Positions 1,559 through 37,217 of a stretch of DNA of 60,065 nt are shown here, piece after piece. Source of the stretch: Candidatus Andersenbacteria bacterium RIFCSPHIGHO2_02_FULL_46_16 (GTDB lineage: Bacteria > Patescibacteriota > Andersenbacteria > UBA10190); contig MHHQ01000032.1 in the NCBI GenBank assembly GCA_001817065.1, forward strand, positions 1-60,065. The letters are read 5' to 3'. Within the stretch, counting starts at the first letter, position 1. The number at the start of each line of letters is the position of its first letter. A program made the position numbers and the translations under genes. Below the pieces are notes generated by a model. It ran no database searches and was not told the origin of the DNA. It saw only the letters and a program-made list of their open reading frames with translations.

Positions 1559-1591
1559 TGCTCGCGGGGTCTGACCCGAACCGACAACCTA
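1559..1591 (-). repeat. degenerate copy of the 3' end (T-arm + acceptor) of the tRNA-Asn gene at 36464-36496; att-like direct repeat
   Basis: 31/33 nt identical, same orientation. No matching 5' acceptor strand or D-arm nearby. Confidence 0.6.
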
Positions 1592-2398: not shown

Positions 2399-4588
2399 AT
2401 GGTAACGCGAAATAGCAGCGATAAAGATAAAATAACGCTCTACCGGTCATATTTTCGGGGACGTACTGACGTGTATGCTCGATATTGGAGAAATACCGAG
2501 GGAAAGTCCGGCTACGCTCCAGCACTTGATGGAAAACAACGGCCCCTAGTCCTAACTGATGCTGTCATTAAAGGACATTTATTAGGCATTGAGCTTGTTG
2601 GCGTTTACCTCCTGCTTCCTAACAACACAACGTATTTTCTCGCCGTTGATTTCGATGGTGAGAACTGGCTCGACGATGCATTGGCCGTCCAGAATACGGC
2701 GCAAAAACATAAGCTACCATCTCTTCTGGAGCGATCAAAGTCCGGCAACGGCGGTCATGTCTGGTTCTTTTTCGAGAACGCAATCCCTGCCTGGAAAGCA
2801 CGACAGGTGGGCAAACATTTGATTGCCCAAGCCCAGTTGACAAATAGCAAGTCGTTTGATCGTCTTTTCCCGAGCCAAGACGAACATACTGGCAAGGGAC
2901 TTGGAAACCTTATTGCCCTGCCGCTGAATGGCAAATATGTAAAAGAAGGCGCGACCGTATTTATCGATAAGGCAGGTGAACCCCTATCAGATCAATGGCA
3001 AGCATTATCCTCATACAAGAAAATCGGCGAGGCCGCTCTTGATAGGCTATTGAGCAACATCAAGATCACACCACCGAAGCCAAAAGAAGAGAGAAATAAT
3101 AGTGAAGACGCCCAGTCCACGATTCAAACATCCTCCAAGCCTCAGGCAAAATTAGTGCTCGGTAATCAAATCTACATCCCGCAAGCGTTCTTGCCAGATA
3201 AGCTGTATAAATTTGCCAAGCAAAACTGCAACTTCACGAATCCGCAGTATTACGAAATGCAGCGAAAGGGATATTCAACCTGGAAAACACCTCGGAGAAT
3301 TTATACCATTGATGTTCATGACGAGGGCATATCATTACCAGATGGATTCCTGACGCAACTCCAAAGCTTTGCTAACGAACAAAATATCAAGCTCGATATA
3401 GACGATCAACGTATTGTCGGTAAATCAATTACGTTTCGCACGTCCCTTAAGCTTAGTCCAGAGCAACAAAAAGTAGCCGCACAACTATTGAAGCAGGACC
3501 GGGTCGTTCTCGAGGCACCGCCCGGCTTTGGCAAAAGTATTGTTGCGCTGTATTGCATCAAGCGCCGCCGGCAACCAGCGCTCGTAATCGTTCACCGTAA
3601 ATCCCTACTTCATCAGTGGCGCAAACTGACTGAACAATGGTTTGAGTTGGAGAAAGGCGAACTTGGGATTATTGGCGATAGTAAGTGGAACCCTGGCAGT
3701 AAGCTTACAATCGCCTCCTACCAAACTTTAGCCCGCCGAGGTGTTGAGGAAATTGCCGACCAGTTTGGATTTGTTGTCATTGACGAGTGCCACCACACGC
3801 CAGCGCATACGTTCACAAAAGTACTGAAGCTGTTACCGGCAAAATATGTGTTAGGGTTGACCGCGACGCCGATTCGCAAGGACAAGCTTGATAAATTGAT
3901 TCCACTGTATATAGGGCCCATTACAACAAGTAGCAGTAAACAGGCAGAAATTACTGCCGCAGAAGACATGAACAAAGTACCCATCCGTGTTCACCTGCCG
4001 CGAACAGAGTTTGTTGCCCCCGACAAAAACGTAACATTCAACCAGCTTGGCAAGTTGCTCATATCCAATGAGAATCGCAATCAACAAATTGTAAGTGATG
4101 TTATAAATGCAATGCGCACGGGCGCAAAGTGCTTAATCCTCACCGATCGAGTTGCTCATGAAGAGAATCTGTTAAAACTGATTCGCCAGCAAATGAAATA
4201 TGTACACGCCACTGCCATCTCTGGCCAACTACGAAAGAAAGAGCGGGAAAAGCTTCTGAAACGTATTAAGCAACCGCGCTTTCAGTTGCTCATCGCCACA
4301 GGAAAACTGGTCGGTGAAGGATTTGATTGGCCAGAACTTAACCACCTCTTCCTCACTTTTCCTATTTCATGGAAAGGACGCCTCACACAATACATCGGCC
4401 GAGTACAACGGAAGGCCGAAGGAAAAGAAGACGCTCACGTGTATGACTACGTCGACTATGAAGTTCCCATGCTTCGATTGATGTATTTTAAACGTTTGCG
4501 AACCTATCGCGAATTAGGCTTGGTACGACAAAAGATTCGCACCGTTAAGCAGCCAATTGACGTTAATCAGCTATCAATGCTCCATTAA
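2399..4588 (+). CDS. archaeo-eukaryotic primase-polymerase (AEP) domain fused to an SF2 (DEAH-like) helicase
   Basis: FRGRTDVYARYW...GKSGYAP, VDFDGE and SKSGNGGHVWFFF (AEP motifs). Then APPGFGKS (Walker A), VIDECHH (motif II) and LTATP (motif III). Confidence 0.85.
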   Translation: MVTRNSSDKDKITLYRSYFRGRTDVYARYWRNTEGKSGYAPALDGKQRPLVLTDAVIKGHLLGIELVGVYLLLPNNTTYFLAVDFDGENWLDDALAVQNTAQKHKLPSLLERSKSGNGGHVWFFFENAIPAWKARQVGKHLIAQAQLTNSKSFDRLFPSQDEHTGKGLGNLIALPLNGKYVKEGATVFIDKAGEPLSDQWQALSSYKKIGEAALDRLLSNIKITPPKPKEERNNSEDAQSTIQTSSKPQAKLVLGNQIYIPQAFLPDKLYKFAKQNCNFTNPQYYEMQRKGYSTWKTPRRIYTIDVHDEGISLPDGFLTQLQSFANEQNIKLDIDDQRIVGKSITFRTSLKLSPEQQKVAAQLLKQDRVVLEAPPGFGKSIVALYCIKRRRQPALVIVHRKSLLHQWRKLTEQWFELEKGELGIIGDSKWNPGSKLTIASYQTLARRGVEEIADQFGFVVIDECHHTPAHTFTKVLKLLPAKYVLGLTATPIRKDKLDKLIPLYIGPITTSSSKQAEITAAEDMNKVPIRVHLPRTEFVAPDKNVTFNQLGKLLISNENRNQQIVSDVINAMRTGAKCLILTDRVAHEENLLKLIRQQMKYVHATAISGQLRKKEREKLLKRIKQPRFQLLIATGKLVGEGFDWPELNHLFLTFPISWKGRLTQYIGRVQRKAEGKEDAHVYDYVDYEVPMLRLMYFKRLRTYRELGLVRQKIRTVKQPIDVNQLSMLH

Positions 4589-27283: not shown

Positions 27284-29971
27284 TTATTTGGAAAACAACC
27301 TAACAACTTCATCAAAATTTTTGAGCCTGTCCTTTTGCCATTCCTCCTGCTTTATATACAAAGCTTTATAAACCATCCTGGTTTGTCTGTTATTCACGTC
27401 TTCACACCAATTTTGTAGTCGTTCAAATTTCAGTTTATCATCTTCCTCTTCACGCCCTTTTGTCTCAACTATATAAACCGTCCTATCGTCAGTTTTTACA
27501 AAGAAATCGGGGTAATAGGTGGCGATAAAGCCCTGTGAATTTTTATACTCGATCCGTAGCGCACTGGCCTCTTTATTCTGGAAATTTTTTGAGAAGGAAA
27601 TTACATCATCACAATTTTCAATAAAGTCGGAGAACGTCAGTTCATAATCGCTATCACCAACAATCTTATTAAACACTGACTTTTTAGGAATTAGATAAGA
27701 CTTATCATTCACCACAAACGGTCGTGCATCACTGATCTTGATATAGTTCTTTATTTGAGTATCACCCATGTCCTGAACCGTCAGGTCGTTTATTGCCTGC
27801 TTGAATGAGTCCTTAATGAGGTGAATATATTCAACTTCCGACAGATTTCTCAAAGTATTCAGATCCGACAACTCCACCGGCTCATCAAACATGTTATTCT
27901 GTACAAATTCCTTTACTTTGCCAAATAGAATGTCGTAGCAACCAAACAAGCGCAGTTCTCGCATAATTGCTTGCGCGAAAAAGCCGATGACACTTTGATA
28001 GTCAGGTTCAATATCTCCACTCAATATGGTTGTATGATGAGTTACTTCATCCACGACATCTTTAAACACAATCTCTCTTTTTTCCTCATCAGAAAACGAC
28101 TTTACTTTGACTTTGGCATTACCAAAAGTAGCAACATTCAGTTCGGCTAGATTTTTATACTCCCGTTGTATTCTGGGTGACATTACTGGTAGCTCAATAT
28201 CCAGCTTGGATATATCCTTCTTAGGATTATCTTTGTCCACTTCAATAACCATAGGCGCGATTGGCTTTGCGCCAACGCCCATTGCTTTCTTTTCCAAAAT
28301 CACACCTTCACCCTTTATTGATTCAACGAAATCCATAAATGCTGGCGTGCCGACCACGCTCACATATTCTTCAACAGTATCGTCTCCAAAAAACATTCTT
28401 CTTAAACCTCGGCCTAATGTTTGTTCTGGTAAGATTTTTGATTCAGCGGCGTATGGTCTTAAACCCACAATGGTCGTGACATTCTTCACATCCCAACCTT
28501 CTTTTAACATCATGACAGAAATAATTACTTTATATGGACTTTCCCAACTATCTATGTTGTTGGCTAACTTCCTCAATATATCCAACTCCTCCTTATTCTT
28601 ACCGCTAACAGTTTCAGAAATTTCACCACTCTTATTAGTATGAATGGTTAAAACGGCATCCTTTAAATCCGCAAAGCTGGTTTCAATGTATTGAGCCACT
28701 TCATCACAATTCTTGGTATCATCCGTCATGATGAAAAGAATTGATTTTTTGCCTATAGGCTTAAGCGTCTCATACGTTTTGCGCCACTCTTCGATACCCA
28801 GATTGATGTAATCTCGGTATTTTTCACTAAACAACGGGCTTTGATTTTCTTTGAGTTTTCCGCGACTGGCCGCATCTGGCACAACTGGATTTTTTACAAT
28901 TCTCTGATGAATGGCCTCTACTAATGGATAGTCAGAAATTGTTTGCACAAAGATTGAACCATCATTTTTCTTTGGCGTTGCCGTAACATCTAACTGTAAA
29001 GCTAAGCCCGATCCTTTTTGTTTTAACCTGTTATCAATATCCAGGATGGACTTAAACCACGCCATCTTCTCGTCATGGATGTGATGTGCCTCATCATTAA
29101 TAACAATCAGCTCATCAATATCTCTTACGATCATACCGAGATCAACAGTCGAATCATTAGTTTTTGTCACGGGCTCATGACCCAAAAAGTATGCGGACGT
29201 ATCTTCATCATCCAGCCTCGGCTCTCTGACATCGCCTTCAAATACTCTGTGTATATTCGTCAAAAATATATTGCCTGTGTCAGACACATTCCTCAAGTTA
29301 TCTTGTAGATGTAGCGTGACTTGAAAATCATCCTGCCAATTTTGACCTTGATATCCATTATCCGGCAAAACTGGATCACTAAAAAATATCTTTAAGCCTT
29401 CAAAATCATTCTTGATTCTTTCGAAGACAATTACATTCGGCGTTATCAAAAGGAAGTTCTTAGCCAACTGAGAGTCCTGCTCGTATTTCTTATGAAAATA
29501 TGCCCAAGTAATCACCAGACTCATAACCTTTGTCTTGCCGGCACCAGTTGCCATTTTTATAACAAAACGCAACCAATCTTCAATAAACATGCCGGCACTC
29601 AATGCGCCTGTGGAGTTGTAGCGTATGAGATCATATTTATCTTTTACCTTTGCTACTTCGTACAACCAGACGACTGTTTCTAATGCTTCCCTTTGCGCAA
29701 AGTAATATCTAAAATGCGACGCAACACCTTCGTGATCGTACAAAACATGCTCTTCTTTAAACCACCAGTTAAGAAGTGCTTTTGATGTCTCACTCGCACC
29801 TTCATACTGTTTACCTCGCCATTCTTTTACCTTCTTGCGAAGCTCTGCCACAAGCGGTGGTAACAATTTATCATAGCCCTTTTCACGTAAATCTTCAGCT
29901 GCCGGAAACCACCGGATGCTCGGATCTAGTATCGCGTATGGGTCTTTGGGGAAATCTTTGTGGAGAGCCAT
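27284..29971 (-). CDS. res: type III restriction enzyme, Res subunit
   Basis: ATGAGKT, NDEAHH, C-terminal PDF...VETKG nuclease motif. Confidence 0.85.
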   Translation of the reverse strand: MALHKDFPKDPYAILDPSIRWFPAAEDLREKGYDKLLPPLVAELRKKVKEWRGKQYEGASETSKALLNWWFKEEHVLYDHEGVASHFRYYFAQREALETVVWLYEVAKVKDKYDLIRYNSTGALSAGMFIEDWLRFVIKMATGAGKTKVMSLVITWAYFHKKYEQDSQLAKNFLLITPNVIVFERIKNDFEGLKIFFSDPVLPDNGYQGQNWQDDFQVTLHLQDNLRNVSDTGNIFLTNIHRVFEGDVREPRLDDEDTSAYFLGHEPVTKTNDSTVDLGMIVRDIDELIVINDEAHHIHDEKMAWFKSILDIDNRLKQKGSGLALQLDVTATPKKNDGSIFVQTISDYPLVEAIHQRIVKNPVVPDAASRGKLKENQSPLFSEKYRDYINLGIEEWRKTYETLKPIGKKSILFIMTDDTKNCDEVAQYIETSFADLKDAVLTIHTNKSGEISETVSGKNKEELDILRKLANNIDSWESPYKVIISVMMLKEGWDVKNVTTIVGLRPYAAESKILPEQTLGRGLRRMFFGDDTVEEYVSVVGTPAFMDFVESIKGEGVILEKKAMGVGAKPIAPMVIEVDKDNPKKDISKLDIELPVMSPRIQREYKNLAELNVATFGNAKVKVKSFSDEEKREIVFKDVVDEVTHHTTILSGDIEPDYQSVIGFFAQAIMRELRLFGCYDILFGKVKEFVQNNMFDEPVELSDLNTLRNLSEVEYIHLIKDSFKQAINDLTVQDMGDTQIKNYIKISDARPFVVNDKSYLIPKKSVFNKIVGDSDYELTFSDFIENCDDVISFSKNFQNKEASALRIEYKNSQGFIATYYPDFFVKTDDRTVYIVETKGREEEDDKLKFERLQNWCEDVNNRQTRMVYKALYIKQEEWQKDRLKNFDEVVRLFSK

Positions 29972-29973
29972 GA

Positions 29974-30861
29974 TTATGATTTAGATATAGTAAAATCTCC
30001 AATTAAAACCTCGCCACATTCATTAAAAATCCCAACTCTTTTACCAAACATTGGTGGGTTTGTGATCTCTCCTAAAAAGTCACCATCCTTGAACATCTTC
30101 GCCTTTTCACTAGTAAACTCAACACGCACCCTGTGCCATTGATTATCTATTGTTCTCGTACCAAGAATTTTATTAAACCTCCAGTTTACACCCGGCCCCC
30201 CGTCCTTAATAAGGAATGCATCGGAATCTGCTGTTCTACCTTCAAATCGAGCCATATGCCAATTATCTTGTTTATCATCACAGAAAAAGACAATGTTCAA
30301 AACTGAATTCGGGGAAAGATATATATCACATTCAACAGTCCCCCTATCAATCTCCAAATCTTTAGCTATGAGGAAGCTATTAGTGGCCTGGGCGGGGTTT
30401 GCCATTGTGAGCTGAAGTCGTGGATGCCCCATATCAGAAAACAAAGAAGGTTGTCCAGTCTTTATATCCCACCTAGAAGCATCAATTGTATTTTTAGAGC
30501 TTGTAAAATTATCAGAAAATATACTAGAAGGTGAAGATAGACGATAACCACGTTTATCGCTACTAAAAAAGCTCATAAAAACAATTAAAGAGACTATTAG
30601 CCACAACCATTTCACGGGGCTTTGGGCATAAAGGAATGCAATGGAAATAACAAAAATAGTGAACCTCGTGTAGGGATGCATTATTTTGGATAATAACCAC
30701 TGTAAAACATTAGCCAATTTTGGATTTTGTCGATACAACCAATATTTAAATGGCTTAATTACCCAGTACACAAAAATGGTTATAATTATTGTAGCTATTA
30801 AAGTGCCCAGTGCGTTAGCTAGAGCGCTACTCCAAAACGCCTGATCTGTAAAATCGATCAT
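29974..30861 (-). CDS. membrane-anchored protein with C-terminal concanavalin-A/LamG-like (DUF1080-like) beta-sandwich
   Basis: 3-4 N-terminal TM helices. The C-terminal pattern ...WHRVRVEFTSEKAKMFKDGDFLGEI is typical of this fold (weak). Confidence 0.45.
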   Translation of the reverse strand: MIDFTDQAFWSSALANALGTLIATIIITIFVYWVIKPFKYWLYRQNPKLANVLQWLLSKIMHPYTRFTIFVISIAFLYAQSPVKWLWLIVSLIVFMSFFSSDKRGYRLSSPSSIFSDNFTSSKNTIDASRWDIKTGQPSLFSDMGHPRLQLTMANPAQATNSFLIAKDLEIDRGTVECDIYLSPNSVLNIVFFCDDKQDNWHMARFEGRTADSDAFLIKDGGPGVNWRFNKILGTRTIDNQWHRVRVEFTSEKAKMFKDGDFLGEITNPPMFGKRVGIFNECGEVLIGDFTISKS

Positions 30862-32981
30862 ATATTTACCTCGATTACTTTTGTCGTATCGTTTCCAAAA
30901 ATATCCACTACCTTTACAGCAACTTTATAAGTTCCTCTAGTCACTTCCTTAGATACGGAAGTGAGTTCAAGATTTCTATTCTTTTTTGTACGAAAACTCT
31001 GCCATTCATTATCAAATATATAGTCGCCAGTCCAAACTTCTTTTTCCTGCCCATTTTCTAGGATTGTTATTATTTCTTTCCTATCCGCAAAATTGAAATC
31101 CACCGCCCAATAATCAATCCAATCGCTCCACTTTTTAGTTAAAACTTCTTTTTCGACAAGATCGGTTTTCTTGTCTTTTGATATTTTCACCACTTGTCCA
31201 TTTTCTACTATCACTTTTACTCCCCCCGGCCGCAAAGTTTCGACTATTTCGCCCGCGTCGTCTTGATTATAGAAAACAGAAAAGTCAATCAGCTTGATTG
31301 AAAGCTCCTTTTTATTCACCCGCCCTTTCACAATCGGCTTTGCTTCAATAAACGCCACATCATAAAACTTCACTTGTCCTTTTTCTACCGCTTTCCTGTC
31401 GAATACTTCTCTTGGAATTATTCTAAAAGCAATATCGACGCCCTGATCCTTATACTGCGAAAAATCAAGCCCCATCTCGTAGTCAAAGCCCAAAACATCA
31501 ATCTTAGTGATTCCCTTCTCTTTGCACTCTGTCACAATATCTTGCACCAGTTTTAAAGAAACGGGAGTATTGATAGGTCCTACCGCGACAAGGCGATCTC
31601 TTTTCTTACCGATAACATTTACAAAAGATCCTACCGGCTCCGCTTTATACGCAGAAAGTATGAGTTTTACAAATTCTTTCTCTTTCCTTTCGGCTTGTTT
31701 TGATTTTTCTTCCGCTCGCAAATTGTCATTTGTTGCAAGGAAACTTTCTCTTTCGTATCTTCCGACATTCAAAATTTCAAATGCTCGAAAGTTCTTGCCA
31801 GCCTTTTTGAGCTCTCTCTGCACGCCGATTAGTCGTTTACGTGAAGTATGAATCCCAAATTTCCCCAAATCAGAGCCAATCCACTTTCTTCCTAATTTTT
31901 CTGCTACTCCCAACGTTGTGCCAGAACCACAGAAAAAGTCAGCGATGAGGTCGCCTTCGTTTGAAGAAGCTTCAATGATTCTCTCAAGTAGTTCTGTGGG
32001 TTTTTGAGTCGGATAATCGATACGCTCATCGGCGCTTGCATTGATATGTTGAATTGGCCATACATCACCAACTCGTTTACCACCCTCGTTCAGATATACT
32101 TTATATGCCTCTTTTCCGGCACGTTTTTGCCATCGAAACCATTTACCGCTTTCGTCCTGTTTATAATGAGAATCTTTTGTTCCGGCAGTCTCACTATATG
32201 CCTCACGCTGTTCGTTGAAAATCCATTTGCTGGATTTCGTGAACCAGTAAATATTGTCGTGAAGCGTTTGATAGCTATTACTGTTGGCAGTATAGCGTCT
32301 GTAGTACCAAATAATTTCATTTCTAAAATTATCTTTTCCAAATATCTCATCTAGGCACATTCTCATAAAACTATTCACTCTCCAATCGCAATGTACATAA
32401 ATACTTCCATCTTCCGCGAGCAAATCGTGCATGAGTTTTAACCGTTCATAAATCATCGCAATAAAACTATCCGCGCCTTTGCCCCAAGTGTCACGATAGG
32501 CGATTTCTTCTATAACTGACGGCTTTTTGGTAAAGCTTTCTTCGTCCTCGCCATCGCCGATTTTTATATCCATCGAAAAATCCGCCCCGACATCAAACGG
32601 CGGGTCAATGTAAATTAATTTCAATCCACCTTGTGCTTCTATTTCTTTGCGGAGCGGTCCATTCTTGAGGGAAGAAAGAATCAGCTTATTGTCTCCCCAG
32701 ATAAGTTTATTCGTCCATCCAGAAATCTGCCTTCCCGACATATCAAAAAGCGAACCCTGCGGATTCCCAAATTTACCATCACTTCTCGGCTCGTCTATTT
32801 GTTCAATAACCTGAAAAGGCAAGACGACATTCGTTACCTCATTTGTTTTTCCGTTCCAAACCAGCTCGACTTCTCGGTCATCATCAAAAAGCAAAAAGCG
32901 ATACTTTTCCGGAAGCGGCTTTCCGGCTTCCAAAAATTTTGCAATATCTCTTTTCTCGTTATCAGTAAGCTTCATAGTCAC
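30858..32981 (-). CDS. mod: type III R-M Mod DNA methyltransferase (beta-class N6A/N4C)
   Basis: IYIDPPF (motif IV) before DFFCGSGTT (motif I). Confidence 0.85.
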   Translation of the reverse strand: MTMKLTDNEKRDIAKFLEAGKPLPEKYRFLLFDDDREVELVWNGKTNEVTNVVLPFQVIEQIDEPRSDGKFGNPQGSLFDMSGRQISGWTNKLIWGDNKLILSSLKNGPLRKEIEAQGGLKLIYIDPPFDVGADFSMDIKIGDGEDEESFTKKPSVIEEIAYRDTWGKGADSFIAMIYERLKLMHDLLAEDGSIYVHCDWRVNSFMRMCLDEIFGKDNFRNEIIWYYRRYTANSNSYQTLHDNIYWFTKSSKWIFNEQREAYSETAGTKDSHYKQDESGKWFRWQKRAGKEAYKVYLNEGGKRVGDVWPIQHINASADERIDYPTQKPTELLERIIEASSNEGDLIADFFCGSGTTLGVAEKLGRKWIGSDLGKFGIHTSRKRLIGVQRELKKAGKNFRAFEILNVGRYERESFLATNDNLRAEEKSKQAERKEKEFVKLILSAYKAEPVGSFVNVIGKKRDRLVAVGPINTPVSLKLVQDIVTECKEKGITKIDVLGFDYEMGLDFSQYKDQGVDIAFRIIPREVFDRKAVEKGQVKFYDVAFIEAKPIVKGRVNKKELSIKLIDFSVFYNQDDAGEIVETLRPGGVKVIVENGQVVKISKDKKTDLVEKEVLTKKWSDWIDYWAVDFNFADRKEIITILENGQEKEVWTGDYIFDNEWQSFRTKKNRNLELTSVSKEVTRGTYKVAVKVVDIFGNDTTKVIEVNI

Positions 32982-35372: not shown

Positions 35373-36023
35373 TTATATCTTTACCTTTGCGTCTCCACTA
35401 AAAACCAAGTGTGTCATATCCCAGTATAGGGTACTCAAAAGGGCTGTATCGGCTTTTGAAGTTTCGCTTGTAATTAACTTCCTGATATTTTTCCGAAATG
35501 CCTGGCGGCTATTATTACAAGCTGCTGAGACTGTATTGCCTTTAAGTAAAGAAATTGGAACTTGGGTAGCTGGTTCAAGAAATTTTTTGGCTACTTCATC
35601 ATGATGAGGCTTAGTCTGTTTGTCTCGATCCGTGTAGAAAATAAAATCGGTATTGTAGCCAACAAAAGCCTTAGCTCCCTGGTGCACACTTTCTGGACCA
35701 AGCTCGTTTGCAGCTTGGCAAGATAGGGCATACGTTACAGTATCTTGCAAAATCTTGGCGTTATCATCACTCCGAACAATAGCTACATTGTCCTGTCCAC
35801 AAACTTGATTACTACTGCCATGACCATTGAGAAAGATAAGATCAGGTTTAACTTTGCGCACAATACTTTCAAAATATTTCTTACAGGCACGTTTATTTTT
35901 TAAATCAGTGACTGAATGCCCTTTTTGTTGGACTTCATTGCTGAATTTTCCTGCATAGTAAGAAAGGTAGCGGGTAGTTAAGTCATGATTGGGACGAGTA
36001 ACTACAATCCGCTTAGTCGTCAT
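35373..36023 (-). CDS. hypothetical protein; possible clan CD (caspase/gingipain-like) His-Cys fold
   Basis: LIFLNGHGS followed 34 residues later by YALSCQAA, each after a hydrophobic strand. Confidence 0.3.
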   Translation of the reverse strand: MTTKRIVVTRPNHDLTTRYLSYYAGKFSNEVQQKGHSVTDLKNKRACKKYFESIVRKVKPDLIFLNGHGSSNQVCGQDNVAIVRSDDNAKILQDTVTYALSCQAANELGPESVHQGAKAFVGYNTDFIFYTDRDKQTKPHHDEVAKKFLEPATQVPISLLKGNTVSAACNNSRQAFRKNIRKLITSETSKADTALLSTLYWDMTHLVFSGDAKVKI

Positions 36024-36237
36024 AAAGAGCGCCTTCTTTTAATGCCCGCAAAAAACTCATTTCAACCTCGATAATCTTCTGTCCGACGCGATCGCCTTCT
36101 TCCACATGCTGGATAAGCTCATCTCTTTTATAACTACCGTCAGCTCCAATAGAAATCTCGCGATCAGCGGGTATAGCGCGTAACCGCGCCACAACCAGCT
36201 CTTTTATATCGTCTTGGGTTTCTTCTGGCACGATCAA
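36013..36237 (-). CDS. hypothetical small protein (74 aa)
   Basis: ORF overlapping its downstream neighbour. Confidence 0.4.
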   Translation of the reverse strand: MIVPEETQDDIKELVVARLRAIPADREISIGADGSYKRDELIQHVEEGDRVGQKIIEVEMSFLRALKEGALYDD

Positions 36238-36242
36238 TAAGT

Positions 36243-36422
36243 TTAAATAATTTCCAGGTTAGCTAGCTTTTCTAGAATTTGTCGGCCGCTTTCTGTGTCT
36301 TCAACAATCTCAAGATTGGCTACTCTCCACGTAATAGGCTCACCGTCCAAGACAACCACGACTTGGTCTCGTACATTAAGTGGCAAGTTGGCGTAGACTT
36401 TAAAAAATCTTTCCTTATCCAT
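36243..36422 (-). CDS. hypothetical small protein (59 aa, below the ORF-track cutoff): MDKERFFKVYANLPLNVRDQVVVVLDGEPITWRVANLEIVEDTESGRQILEKLANLEII
   Basis: Translated by hand; its stop lies 5 nt before the next start. Confidence 0.35.
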   Translation of the reverse strand: MDKERFFKVYANLPLNVRDQVVVVLDGEPITWRVANLEIVEDTESGRQILEKLANLEII

Positions 36423-36503
36423 GTAATAGGTAACTATTTTTAGTTAAAGAATATTTGACCATTTGCTCGCGGGGTCGGACTCGAACCGACAACCTAGTGG
36501 TTA

Positions 36504-37050
36504 CATGTAACCCATTATTTTCATAATGGCATGGACTATCTCATTCACCACACCTCTTTTGAGACATGGCGACCGGGCGCTTATGTAGGATTATTGTTGG
36601 GACTCACCTACTAGTCTCTACACCTTCCGAAAAACTAATACCCTTTTCGGCTTGGCTCGGGATTACCAGTTAAGGCTTCCCCGAATTCACCCAGTTATTC
36701 GATCCGCCTCTCGACGGAAAGCTGCGTTATACCAGCATGCAACTCTCTGTGACAATTAGCGCAAACAATTATGCACTTATCAACCTCTGCCTTGACTCTC
36801 ACCCACGAACGAGTTAATCCACTCAATCCCAATCCAAATTTCTTACTCGATTCGTCAATGTGGTGAAAGTCCAAACCAGCTGCACATTTATTATAGCCAC
36901 ACAGCATACATGCTCCGCCTTTGTATTCAACAGCCATAGCCTTAATCTTTCGTCGCCTCTTAGCCACAGCTTGTTTTATATACTCAGCACGGTCAGCATA
37001 AGTTCTTGTCTCTGGCATACACTTCATAGTATACCCGATCAACTTAATAC
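36504..37050 (-). ncRNA. group I intron, IC3-like (Azoarcus/cyanobacterial tRNA-intron type)
   Basis: Strings AAUUCGGGGAAGCCUUAA, CCCGAGCCAAGCC and GAAGGUGUAGAGACUAG, with P7 GACUA/UAGUC, a GAAA-capped hairpin and a terminal G. The 5' exon ends in U. Confidence 0.75.
36695..37027 (-). CDS. intron-encoded HNH endonuclease (ATG at 37027; alternative TTG at 37042)
   Basis: GGACMLCGY...FHHID...VCANCHRELH. Confidence 0.8.
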   Translation of the reverse strand: MKCMPETRTYADRAEYIKQAVAKRRRKIKAMAVEYKGGACMLCGYNKCAAGLDFHHIDESSKKFGLGLSGLTRSWVRVKAEVDKCIIVCANCHRELHAGITQLSVERRIE

Positions 37051-37217
37051 ACAGCCACTTGCTCTGCCATTGAGCTACCCGCGAATAAGGCCTGTTTCCA
37101 GGCCTGTCTCTGAATTATTGCTAACCCAGATATTTTTTAAAACTGTAAAGAACACACCTAAATAAATAGGTGTGTCAATTGTGGCTAATAAACTGGAAAA
37201 ATTCAAGCTCTAGGCCA

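Follow-up and report, generated by a model that had tools for sequence, protein, structure and literature searches.

A tRNA-Asn gene of Candidatus Andersenbacteria is split inside its anticodon by a group I intron that encodes a putative HNH homing endonuclease

What separates the two halves of a tRNA-Asn(GUU) gene of Candidatus Andersenbacteria bacterium RIFCSPHIGHO2_02_FULL_46_16, and could the gene still work? The locus lies on the minus strand of a 60,065 nt stretch of contig MHHQ01000032.1 (hereafter the window), in which 547 nt stand between the two halves. Bacterial tRNA group I introns, such as those of Azoarcus and Anabaena, are textbook ribozymes that are regarded as few, mostly devoid of an open reading frame (ORF) and largely immobile. 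We find that the 547-nt insert is a group I intron which has the same ribozyme core, sits inside the anticodon of tRNA-Asn and carries an HNH gene. The relatives of its protein number more than 1000 when clustered at 90%; they occur in Patescibacteria, Omnitrophota, Planctomycetota and Bacteroidota as well as on some viral contigs. Judged from sequence, the element is most likely a self-splicing mobile group I intron whose HNH protein acts as its homing endonuclease.

The split tRNA-Asn gene and its group I intron

The insertion point lies between U35 and U36 (standard tRNA numbering). The 5' exon ends in CUGU, as it does in ~80 homologous loci, and joining it to UAA restores the loop CUGUUAA. 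The first base of the intron is a G and its last base is the omega-G at position 36504, whose column is nearly invariant in the alignment of homologs. When the two halves are joined, ARAGORN returns a canonical tRNA-Asn(gtt) with a perfect cloverleaf, the CCA end of which is not encoded; on the native sequence, with long introns permitted, it reports 'tRNA-Asn (gtt) i(35,547)'. The exon coordinates, the 547-nt spacing, the two-half cloverleaf and the junction rule (5' exon ending in U, intron ending in G) proposed in the initial annotation, which had been made by eye, are exact to the base. In relatives ARAGORN, with introns permitted, often calls 'tRNA-Thr(tgt/cgt)'. Manual checks showed that these are mis-parsed junctions and that all are tRNA-Asn genes of the form CUGU/...G/UAA, where slashes mark the splice sites.

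The window comes from a metagenome-assembled genome (MAG), so the tRNA halves, the ribozyme and the HNH gene might have been joined by faulty assembly or binning. However, an identical architecture is found in ~80 independent assemblies, which were made in different studies and with different assemblers, and since the same split recurs in them at the same position it is not due to chance. Moreover, a 92%-identical copy (locus L205) with the same upstream MBOAT gene stems from an unrelated sequencing run. We consider an artefact to be hardly conceivable.

Rfam detects Intron_gpI (RF00028) at 36780-36512(-) with 57.3 bits (gathering score 50, E = 6e-12). This is the sole Rfam family at the curated threshold in the window, and related intron loci are reported with 55-83 bits. 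The core strings, the P7 pairing and the GAAA-capped hairpin, now assigned to P9, that had been picked out by eye are all present. A convincing P1 or guide pairing, in contrast, had been missed. It exists and becomes apparent from two other Andersenbacteria. In one of them (L003) the same tRNA-Asn contains a 229-nt ORF-less intron, which starts GGCUGU/GAGGUUAC-GCAGCU-UCCGCAAGUAAUUGCGG and whose P1 is a plain hairpin; in the other one (L001) the intron measures 548 nt and has the HNH ORF in place of the 8-nt loop of L003. P1, therefore, consists of the exon end GGCUGU and the guide GCAGCU (36725-36720), which lies ~320 nt from the splice site. Since this partner is located so far downstream, P1 closes across the whole ORF and the HNH ORF is situated in the P1 loop.

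The guide could be located automatically in a set of 72 homologous introns. GCAGC, which makes up the columns G5 C6 A7 G8 C9, is invariant in 72 of the 72 aligned sequences and always faces (N)GCUGU; a U·G wobble marks the 5' splice site (U37051 in the window), and a GNRA-capped P2 hairpin always follows. An exact 40-mer of the core is found in three genomes of the candidate phyla radiation (CPR). The placement of P1 and P2 by Rfam inside the ORF (36780-36740) contains many non-canonical pairs and was rejected as spurious in favor of the guide and the P2 at 36718-36703.

Pairings P2 to P9 (Table 1) were written for the window sequence and counted on a MAFFT alignment of the 72 homologs that was not fitted to the structure. 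In the proposed fold 83.7% of the cells are standard pairs, compared to 33-47% when the partners are slid by 1-3 columns, and the covariation score is 0.44 versus 0.06-0.14. Both sides have changed in 46 of 59 pairs, and none of 500 shuffles reaches the observed pairing, covariation score or number of double-change cells. P7, which together with P3 forms the group I pseudoknot, is 100% paired and has switched from A-U to U-A in 17 of the 72 sequences. P6 is likewise 100% paired, P4/P5 94%, P3 89%, P6a 78% and the extra hairpin between P7 and P3' 67%; the lower values for P6a, P8, P9 and the extra hairpin (60-79%) stem from the variable tips of these elements, which MAFFT is unable to align. 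The P2 5' strand alone occurs in 54 distinct sequences among the 72 loci. Finally, the minimum free energy (MFE) fold of 36494-37062(-), with z = -4.5 relative to shuffles, independently yields the long-range P1 (GCUGU/GU with AC-GCAGC), P2, P3, P4/P5, P6a, P8, P9 and the anticodon stem formed between the exons.

Table 1. Coordinates of the split tRNA-Asn gene, its intron and other features of the window
Feature	Coordinates	Strand	Details and basis
tRNA-Asn(GUU) exon 1	37051..37084	(-)	TCGCGGGTAGCTCAATGGCAGAGCAAGTGGCTGT (37084-37051); acceptor 5' strand, D arm, anticodon stem 5' strand, loop C32-U35; ends at U35
tRNA-Asn(GUU) exon 2	36466..36503	(-)	TAACCACTAGGTTGTCGGTTCGAGTCCGACCCCGCGAG (36503-36466); U36 A37 A38, anticodon stem 3' strand, variable loop, T arm, acceptor 3' strand, discriminator G
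Group I intron, 547 nt	36504..37050	(-)	Rfam RF00028 score; ARAGORN i(35,547); covariation on 72 homologs
P1 5' strand	37049..37056	(-)	exon GGCUGU (37056-37051) and intron GU (37050-37049); pairing table of 72 loci, MFE fold
Internal guide sequence, P1 3' strand AC-GCAGCU	36720..36727	(-)	pairing table of 72 loci, MFE fold
P2 hairpin UCCGUC-GAGA-GGCGGA	36703..36718	(-)	GNRA loop; 95-100% paired; double changes in 6/6 pairs
P3-enclosed region	36573..36694	(-)	P3 = 36694-36688 / 36579-36573
P4	36684-79 / 36662-57	(-)	
P5	36676-74 / 36667-65	(-)	3 bp
P6	36656-55 / 36623-22	(-)	
P6a	36650-44 / 36633-27	(-)	
P7 GACUA/UAGUC	36616-12 / 36538-34	(-)	5' strand / 3' strand (UAGUC)
Extra hairpin between P7 and P3'	36611-07 / 36589-85	(-)	
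P8	36571-61 / 36556-46	(-)	followed by J8/7 and P7 3' strand; region 36534..36571
P9 hairpin CCAUUAU-GAAA-AUAAUGG	36512..36529	(-)	79% paired; double changes in 6/7 pairs
HNH endonuclease ORF (putative), 107 aa + stop, in P1 loop	36695..37018	(-)	deposited gene call, homolog lengths, profiles
Hairpin GGUAUAC (37035-37029) / GUAUGCC (37020-37014) around AUG (37018-37016)	37014..37035	(-)	motif conservation and MFE fold
Promoter-like site TTTAAA-16-AATAAT, candidate pre-tRNA promoter	37114..37141	(-)	consensus match, ~30 nt upstream of tRNA 5' end
TOTE-AEP primase-helicase	2399-4588		
ResIII helicase	27284-29971		
Type III restriction-modification (R-M) methylase	30858-32981		

Could the locus nevertheless be a dead gene, that is a tRNA-Asn pseudogene with an inert insertion whose function is covered by an intact tRNA-Asn elsewhere in the genome? 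Default tRNA finders detect no tRNA at the locus (ARAGORN in its default mode reports zero tRNAs across the whole window), and the search for a second tRNA-Asn, which found none, covered these 60 kb. However, both exons have kept a perfect cloverleaf, and the window copy retains the guide, the terminal G and 32 of the 32 invariant ribozyme columns. Moreover, compensatory changes across the 72 loci maintain the fold, the split gene is conserved in ~80 genomes, many of them small and CPR-type, and all that otherwise resembles a tRNA-Asn in the window is a fragment of a 3' end. Thus, we regard a dead gene as very improbable.

A self-splicing intron would be removed as follows. In the pre-tRNA the exon end GGCUGU would pair with the guide GCAGCU to form P1 with its canonical U·G, and P2 to P9 would fold into the catalytic core. 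Guanosine would then attack after U35, and the freed 3'-OH of U35 would attack after G36504, which would join CUGU to UAA. The halves of the anticodon stem may help to keep the exons together.

Upstream of the tRNA, a few nt before its 5' end and downstream of the promoter-like site, lies a perfect hairpin (AGGCCUG-GAAA-CAGGCCU, 37086-37103(-)), which might serve either to terminate the gene upstream or as an element in leader processing. Matches to the promoter consensus are no more numerous in the window than in shuffled sequence.

The HNH protein and its overlap with the ribozyme

The ORF in the P1 loop likely starts at the ATG at 37018 (MPETRTYADR...), in agreement with the deposited gene call and the lengths of the homologs. 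Among 36 homologs (~65% identity) C37, C40, H52, H53, C86, N88, C89 and H90 do not vary at all, and H94 hardly does. The columns that make up two CxxC zinc knuckles, the CxNCH motif and the HH pair are conserved, with an insertion of ~25 residues between the HH and CxxCH elements, and the window copy has lost none of its catalytic and zinc-binding residues. The Pfam HNH family is matched by 24 of the 36 family members at E <= 0.01 (best 1.1e-6). Searching the PDB with the family profile recovers a group II intron maturase by its HNH domain (6me0, E = 1.8e-4, over residues 2-96) and McrA (E = 0.064). An AlphaFold2 model, with a predicted local distance difference test (pLDDT) score of 88, has a strand-strand-helix (beta-beta-alpha) unit in addition to an N-terminal helix that is long and basic. 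HNH nucleases account for 20 of its 23 weak Foldseek matches, with the Gme HNH nickase as one of the structural neighbours. We accept the protein as a divergent member of the HNH (beta-beta-alpha-metal) nucleases. The HNH call of the initial annotation, which was based on the motif CxxC...CANCHRELH, is supported by the presence of the ORF and by the profile evidence at the level of the family; Pfam alone would be insufficient for it.

Compared to its closest relative in L205 (93% amino acid identity), the ORF has a nonsynonymous divergence (dN) of 0.041 and a synonymous divergence (dS) of 0.142. The resulting dN/dS of ~0.29 overall, which is lower in the core, shows that the ORF is under purifying selection. 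Five of the seven amino acid replacements fall into codons 101-106, the tail encoded by P2, where they correspond to compensatory changes in that hairpin (UCCGUC/GGCGGA to CCACGA/UCGUGG).

Coding sequence and ribozyme overlap. The last ~10 codons of the window ORF (TQLSVERRIE) and its stop are encoded by the guide, P2 and J2/3, and the conserved C-terminus of the family, 'TQLP..VEKRGELREA', results from translating ACG-CAG-CUU (the guide) together with P2, J2/3 and P3-P4. The guide is reached or passed by 64 of 65 intronic ORFs, and 53 extend past P2. A ribosome that completes the ORF must, therefore, unwind P1 and P2, so that translation and splicing exclude each other on one RNA molecule.

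How could both products be made? The start codon is embedded in a predicted hairpin (Table 1), the 5' arm of which overlaps an extended -10-like GnTATACT (TATACT at 37033-37028) within the upstream element GGGTATACT. Hairpin arm and element are conserved in 8 CPR-type loci; in the CPR-type copies a TGnTAnAnT element precedes the start by 7-11 nt, and no Shine-Dalgarno sequence is found upstream of the AUG. Copies from Omnitrophota and Planctomycetota instead have a 5' hairpin and GGAGGUG. From this we infer that the hairpin and the -10-like element are candidates for translational or transcriptional control of the ORF. In the pre-tRNA the hairpin would sequester the AUG and thereby keep the RNA untranslated, leaving the ribozyme free to fold. 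A promoter in the 5' arm, on the other hand, may give rise to a near-leaderless mRNA from which the enzyme is expressed; such a transcript would lack the 5' arm as well as the 5' exon and would, therefore, be translatable but not spliceable.

Distribution of the family and the case for homing

In a library clustered at 50% identity the family profile matches 336 clusters at E <= 1e-30; at E <= 1e-3 their number rises to 37,910, with two-module proteins among the more distant ones. Many of the strongest profile matches, among them P0121, P0122, P0125, P0131 and P0152, measure 180-420 aa and combine two tandem HNH modules with zinc-ribbon- or HTH-like N-termini.

We surveyed the best 80 genome loci of HNH relatives. 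They belong to Patescibacteria, Omnitrophota, Planctomycetota, Bacteroidota/Ignavibacteria, Elusimicrobia and Methylomirabilota, to MAGs labelled Gammaproteobacteria and to one MAG labelled Nanoarchaeota. Essentially all of them are tRNA-Asn genes split as in the window, and the intron occupies the same site in 78 of 83 loci. The subfamily of ~107 aa is almost exclusively tied to tRNA-Asn, either inside or adjoining the gene.

The arrangement of intron and endonuclease gene varies within the family. The majority of the loci have the ORF in the P1 loop; the window is among them and carries this intronic form only. L002 and L003 contain an ORF-less intron. A free-standing HNH gene is found directly upstream of an ORF-less intron in L016, L023, L082 and L242 (a 69.6-kb viral contig) and directly downstream of one in L040. 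The short introns of L242 fall below the default filters of Rfam, but score above its gathering score with permissive filters. L014 has one free-standing and one intronic copy, and in L020 an HNH gene with a 5'-exon remnant on one side is followed by an intact intron-less tRNA-Asn. Each free copy is nearest to a different intronic copy (64-69% identity). Some free copies have kept a vestige of the guide-encoded tail (GITKIP, FAKLP), and the short P1 loops of ORF-less introns resemble leftover terminal codons, as in G-GCA-UAA-CGCAGC of L016. This suggests that the gene may have moved repeatedly out of, and into, the intron.

Two of these loci merit a closer description. In L020:1440-1943 (Candidatus Kerfeldbacteria MAG) the HNH gene follows a diverged exon remnant, ..GGTAGAGTGGTCGGCTGT/ACATTG, and the anticodon stem of the intron-less tRNA-Asn differs beside the insertion site (CGCCUGUUAAGCG). 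As predicted, Rfam detects the intact tRNA only and no ribozyme in this locus. The gene may be an endonuclease that has outlived its intron and now resides beside a resistant allele. In L014:1275-2289 (Candidatus Andersenbacteria STL-PAT2) the HNH genes are tandem paralogs, one upstream of the tRNA-Asn and one in its intron, which are not each other's closest relatives.

Intron-less tRNA-Asn genes with an identical 33 nt across the insertion site occur in 29 species, including Saccharibacteria and Peregrinibacteria, and no HNH homolog was found near them in the fetched loci. Presence and absence of the intron at identical targets, together with the various states of the family, is the distribution that a homing element would be expected to leave. 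The HNH enzyme would most likely nick or cut the intron-less tRNA-Asn near the insertion site, whereupon repair would copy the intron into it.

It is also conceivable that the intron self-splices and the tRNA is functional, but that the HNH protein is not, or no longer, a homing enzyme and instead is a decaying passenger, a maturase or a nuclease with some other role. According to homing theory, decay of the endonuclease is expected once a population is saturated (2014 review; PMC3984707). Decayed copies do occur, as the free copy of L082 and the antisense copy of L160 are truncated or degenerate; the HNH module is a widespread building block that is also used elsewhere, for instance in phage tRNA arrays and two-module proteins; and cleavage by the window protein is a predicted function. 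However, its catalytic and zinc-binding residues are intact and invariant over the 36 homologs, and the low dN/dS also counts against such a loss of function. Moreover, the near-exclusive link of the ~107-aa subfamily to tRNA-Asn and the presence or absence of the intron at identical targets fit active mobility. Thus, we consider a non-homing role of the protein to be unlikely, although clearly less so than a dead gene.

Several observations weigh against a self-splicing, homing intron. The window protein scores 17.6 bits with Pfam HNH (PF01844), below the cut-off of 21.4, NCBIfam has no model for it, and Foldseek finds no significant match in the PDB (best E = 0.24). P10 of the window is weak (UGGU/ACCA with a 5-nt spacer). 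The promoter/hairpin motif is conserved by sequence rather than by covariation, and a generic sigma-70 scan leaves the internal -10-like element unflagged, for which reason the internal promoter stays putative. Finally, we infer splicing in vivo, DNA cleavage and its target site from sequence. Taken together with the evidence in favor, a self-splicing mobile intron with an HNH homing endonuclease stays the most likely explanation of the locus.

Viral relatives of the HNH module are numerous. At least 562 viral loci encode them, mostly as free-standing genes (the IMG/VR contigs L235-L314 were inspected), and several are found inside dense phage tRNA arrays (L304 with ~20 tRNAs, L270, L254, L297). 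L235 contains a complete tRNA-Asn intron with its HNH gene, and in L242 the HNH gene lies between two group-I-split tRNAs. It is plausible that phages are vectors between phyla.

Two contigs, L040 with the intron and adjacent HNH gene and L221 with an intron-less allele, are binned as Nanoarchaeota. The same 2014 review states that group I introns have not been found in Archaea (PMC3984707). The two contigs are either mis-binned CPR DNA or deserve a closer look.

The HNH module and the tRNA-Asn gene also occur in other combinations. In L097 (Bdellovibrionales MAG) and L160, tRNA-CAU genes contain group I introns of ~620 nt with a homolog of the HNH module on the antisense strand (43% identity over 87 aa, E = 2e-23), which in L160 is truncated. 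Thus, HNH-bearing tRNA introns are not confined to tRNA-Asn. [quoted passage not shown] Therefore, tRNA-Asn hosts at least two independent intron insertion sites.

Comparison with known systems and the genomic surroundings

The initial annotation had called the intron Azoarcus-type, which applies to one part of it. The comparison was made by way of three beta-proteobacterial tRNA-CAU introns (L152, L157 and L085, 204-223 nt), which we take to resemble the Azoarcus intron, and the subgroup label accordingly rests on resemblance. The J3/4-P4, P6 and J6/7-P7 strings (AAUUCGG.GAA, CCGAGCCAAGC, GAAGGUGUAGAGACUAG and AUAGUCC) are near-identical, and P2 and P9 are GNRA-capped in the window intron as well. 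Moreover, the 17-mer core GAAGGTGTAGAGACTAG is found in at least 120 species genomes, nearly always inside an intron-split tRNA. Leu(UAA) predominates among the hosts of these introns, which are ORF-less and measure 190-336 nt; CAU, Arg(CCU/UCU), Phe and other tRNAs also occur. In contrast, periphery and insertion site differ. In Azoarcus the host is tRNA-Ile and the intron lies after the anticodon, as it also does in the three comparison introns, whereas the window intron splits tRNA-Asn at 35/36. The three comparison introns pass straight from P7 to P3', where the window has the extra hairpin, and they possess a P5 extension, whereas the P5 of the window is limited to 3 bp without P5a. The window intron, at 547 nt, is longer than the ~205 nt of Azoarcus because of the ORF in its P1 loop. 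As far as sequence resemblance can tell, the P3-P7 core is of the bacterial tRNA-intron (IC3-like) type, with a different periphery and site.

I-Ssp6803I is a PD-(D/E)XK nuclease; the window protein is not of this type but of the HNH type by motifs and profiles. The cyanobacterial tRNA-fMet intron that encodes I-Ssp6803I is the one classical precedent and is listed, along with other tRNA introns, in the 2014 review, where the enzyme is cited as a homing endonuclease that targets the anticodon region of a tRNA (PMC3984707 ref. 105); an intron ORF of this type is given as 150 codons elsewhere (PMC5733544). Both systems are bacterial tRNA group I introns with an endonuclease, but enzyme, tRNA and site differ. 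The only related case seen is L161 (uncultured bacterium, CAYJSI010000011.1), where a group I intron of 639 nt interrupts an initiator-type tRNA (CGCGGGG...) after U33. The intron ORF of ~150 aa lies 5' of the core and has a PYD...IQIK motif, and looks like an I-Ssp6803I-type PD-(D/E)XK endonuclease outside cyanobacteria.

The phage enzymes I-HmuI, I-BasI and I-TwoI, which are nicking enzymes, are also HNH endonucleases in group I introns. However, they reside in protein-coding genes, are larger and have separate DNA-binding domains, whereas the window protein belongs to a cellular tRNA, has 107 aa and carries a basic helix at its N-terminus. HNH intron enzymes that nick are cited in the review (PMC3984707 refs 77, 116), and nicking is plausible for the window enzyme because it is small and probably monomeric. 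Moreover, the free-standing HNH genes of L016, L023, L082, L040 and L242, beside an ORF-less intron in the gene that the intronic copies occupy, are reminiscent of collaborative (trans) homing and the invasion by endonuclease genes (Zeng et al., 2009; Bonocora and Shub, 2009; as reviewed in PMC3984707). The published cases concern phage protein-coding genes, whereas the window family concerns a tRNA in cellular genomes of many phyla. Finally, the overlap of the ORF with the guide and P2, and the AUG in a hairpin, recall T4 I-TevI: translation of such an ORF disturbs the folding of the ribozyme, and the review cites that delayed translation is needed for efficient splicing of the td intron (Gibb and Edgell, 2010; PMC3984707 ref. 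35). In the window, however, the control elements are predicted and the host transcript is a tRNA precursor instead of an mRNA.

Lui et al. (2021; PMC8172020) refer briefly to group I introns in CPR tRNAs. In the searchable literature, which excludes a preprint on Patescibacteria tRNA introns (Nakagawa et al., 2025, cited in PMC12641178), neither a group I intron in tRNA-Asn nor an HNH gene in a bacterial tRNA intron is described. Mobile group I introns that encode a homing endonuclease are a known kind of element; the present variant, with its location in tRNA-Asn at 35/36, its P1-loop HNH gene overlapping guide and P2, and its very large cross-phylum family, is probably novel. More tentatively, we suggest that the family may constitute a previously undescribed, phylum-spanning mobile element: a tRNA-Asn(35/36) intron with a P1-loop HNH gene that shares its 3' end with the guide and P2, whose RNA would be either spliced or translated under a hairpin/internal-promoter switch, and which would exist in intronic, free-standing (upstream or downstream), doubled, ORF-deleted and phage-borne states. 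This fuller proposal is possible but doubtful. If it holds, the family would provide a natural series in which the joining and parting of endonucleases and introns (collaborative homing) could be tested in cellular genomes.

The family displays every stage of the association between endonuclease and intron, which would make the origin and decay of mobile introns testable outside phages, and the obligatory overlap of ORF and guide offers a clean system for the conflict between translation and ribozyme folding. There is also a consequence for annotation. By its own statement, tRNAscan-SE 2.0 is not designed to detect tRNAs with group I introns (PMC8450103). Standard tRNA finders miss the split genes, so that tRNA-Asn will be reported absent from many genomes of uncultured bacteria, and inferences on completeness and codon usage that build on its false absence will be wrong.

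The surroundings of the tRNA are of note as well. A ~32 nt copy of its 3' end, without a 5' half, is present at 1559-1590(-), at a distance of 34.9 kb downstream from the 3' end of the tRNA itself. Its 22-mer core (1561-1582) has 2 mismatches, where 0 such copies are expected by chance; as a second tRNA-Asn gene it was rejected, since it holds only the 3' 32 nt, and it appears to be an att-like repeat. The first genes of the putative island, directly on the 3' side of the tRNA, are ORFs of 59, 74 and 216 aa (36013-36422(-) and 35373-36023(-)), which have zero Pfam matches. No integrase was found in the block between repeat and tRNA (1591-36465). Besides the TOTE-AEP primase-helicase and the type III R-M methylase with its ResIII helicase (Table 1), the defence-type genes of this block encode a DUF3800 protein, an HD-domain protein and Abi_C. 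Its GC content is ~0.40, compared to ~0.47 on the other side of the tRNA, and it looks like an old genomic island that has integrated at the intron-bearing tRNA-Asn.

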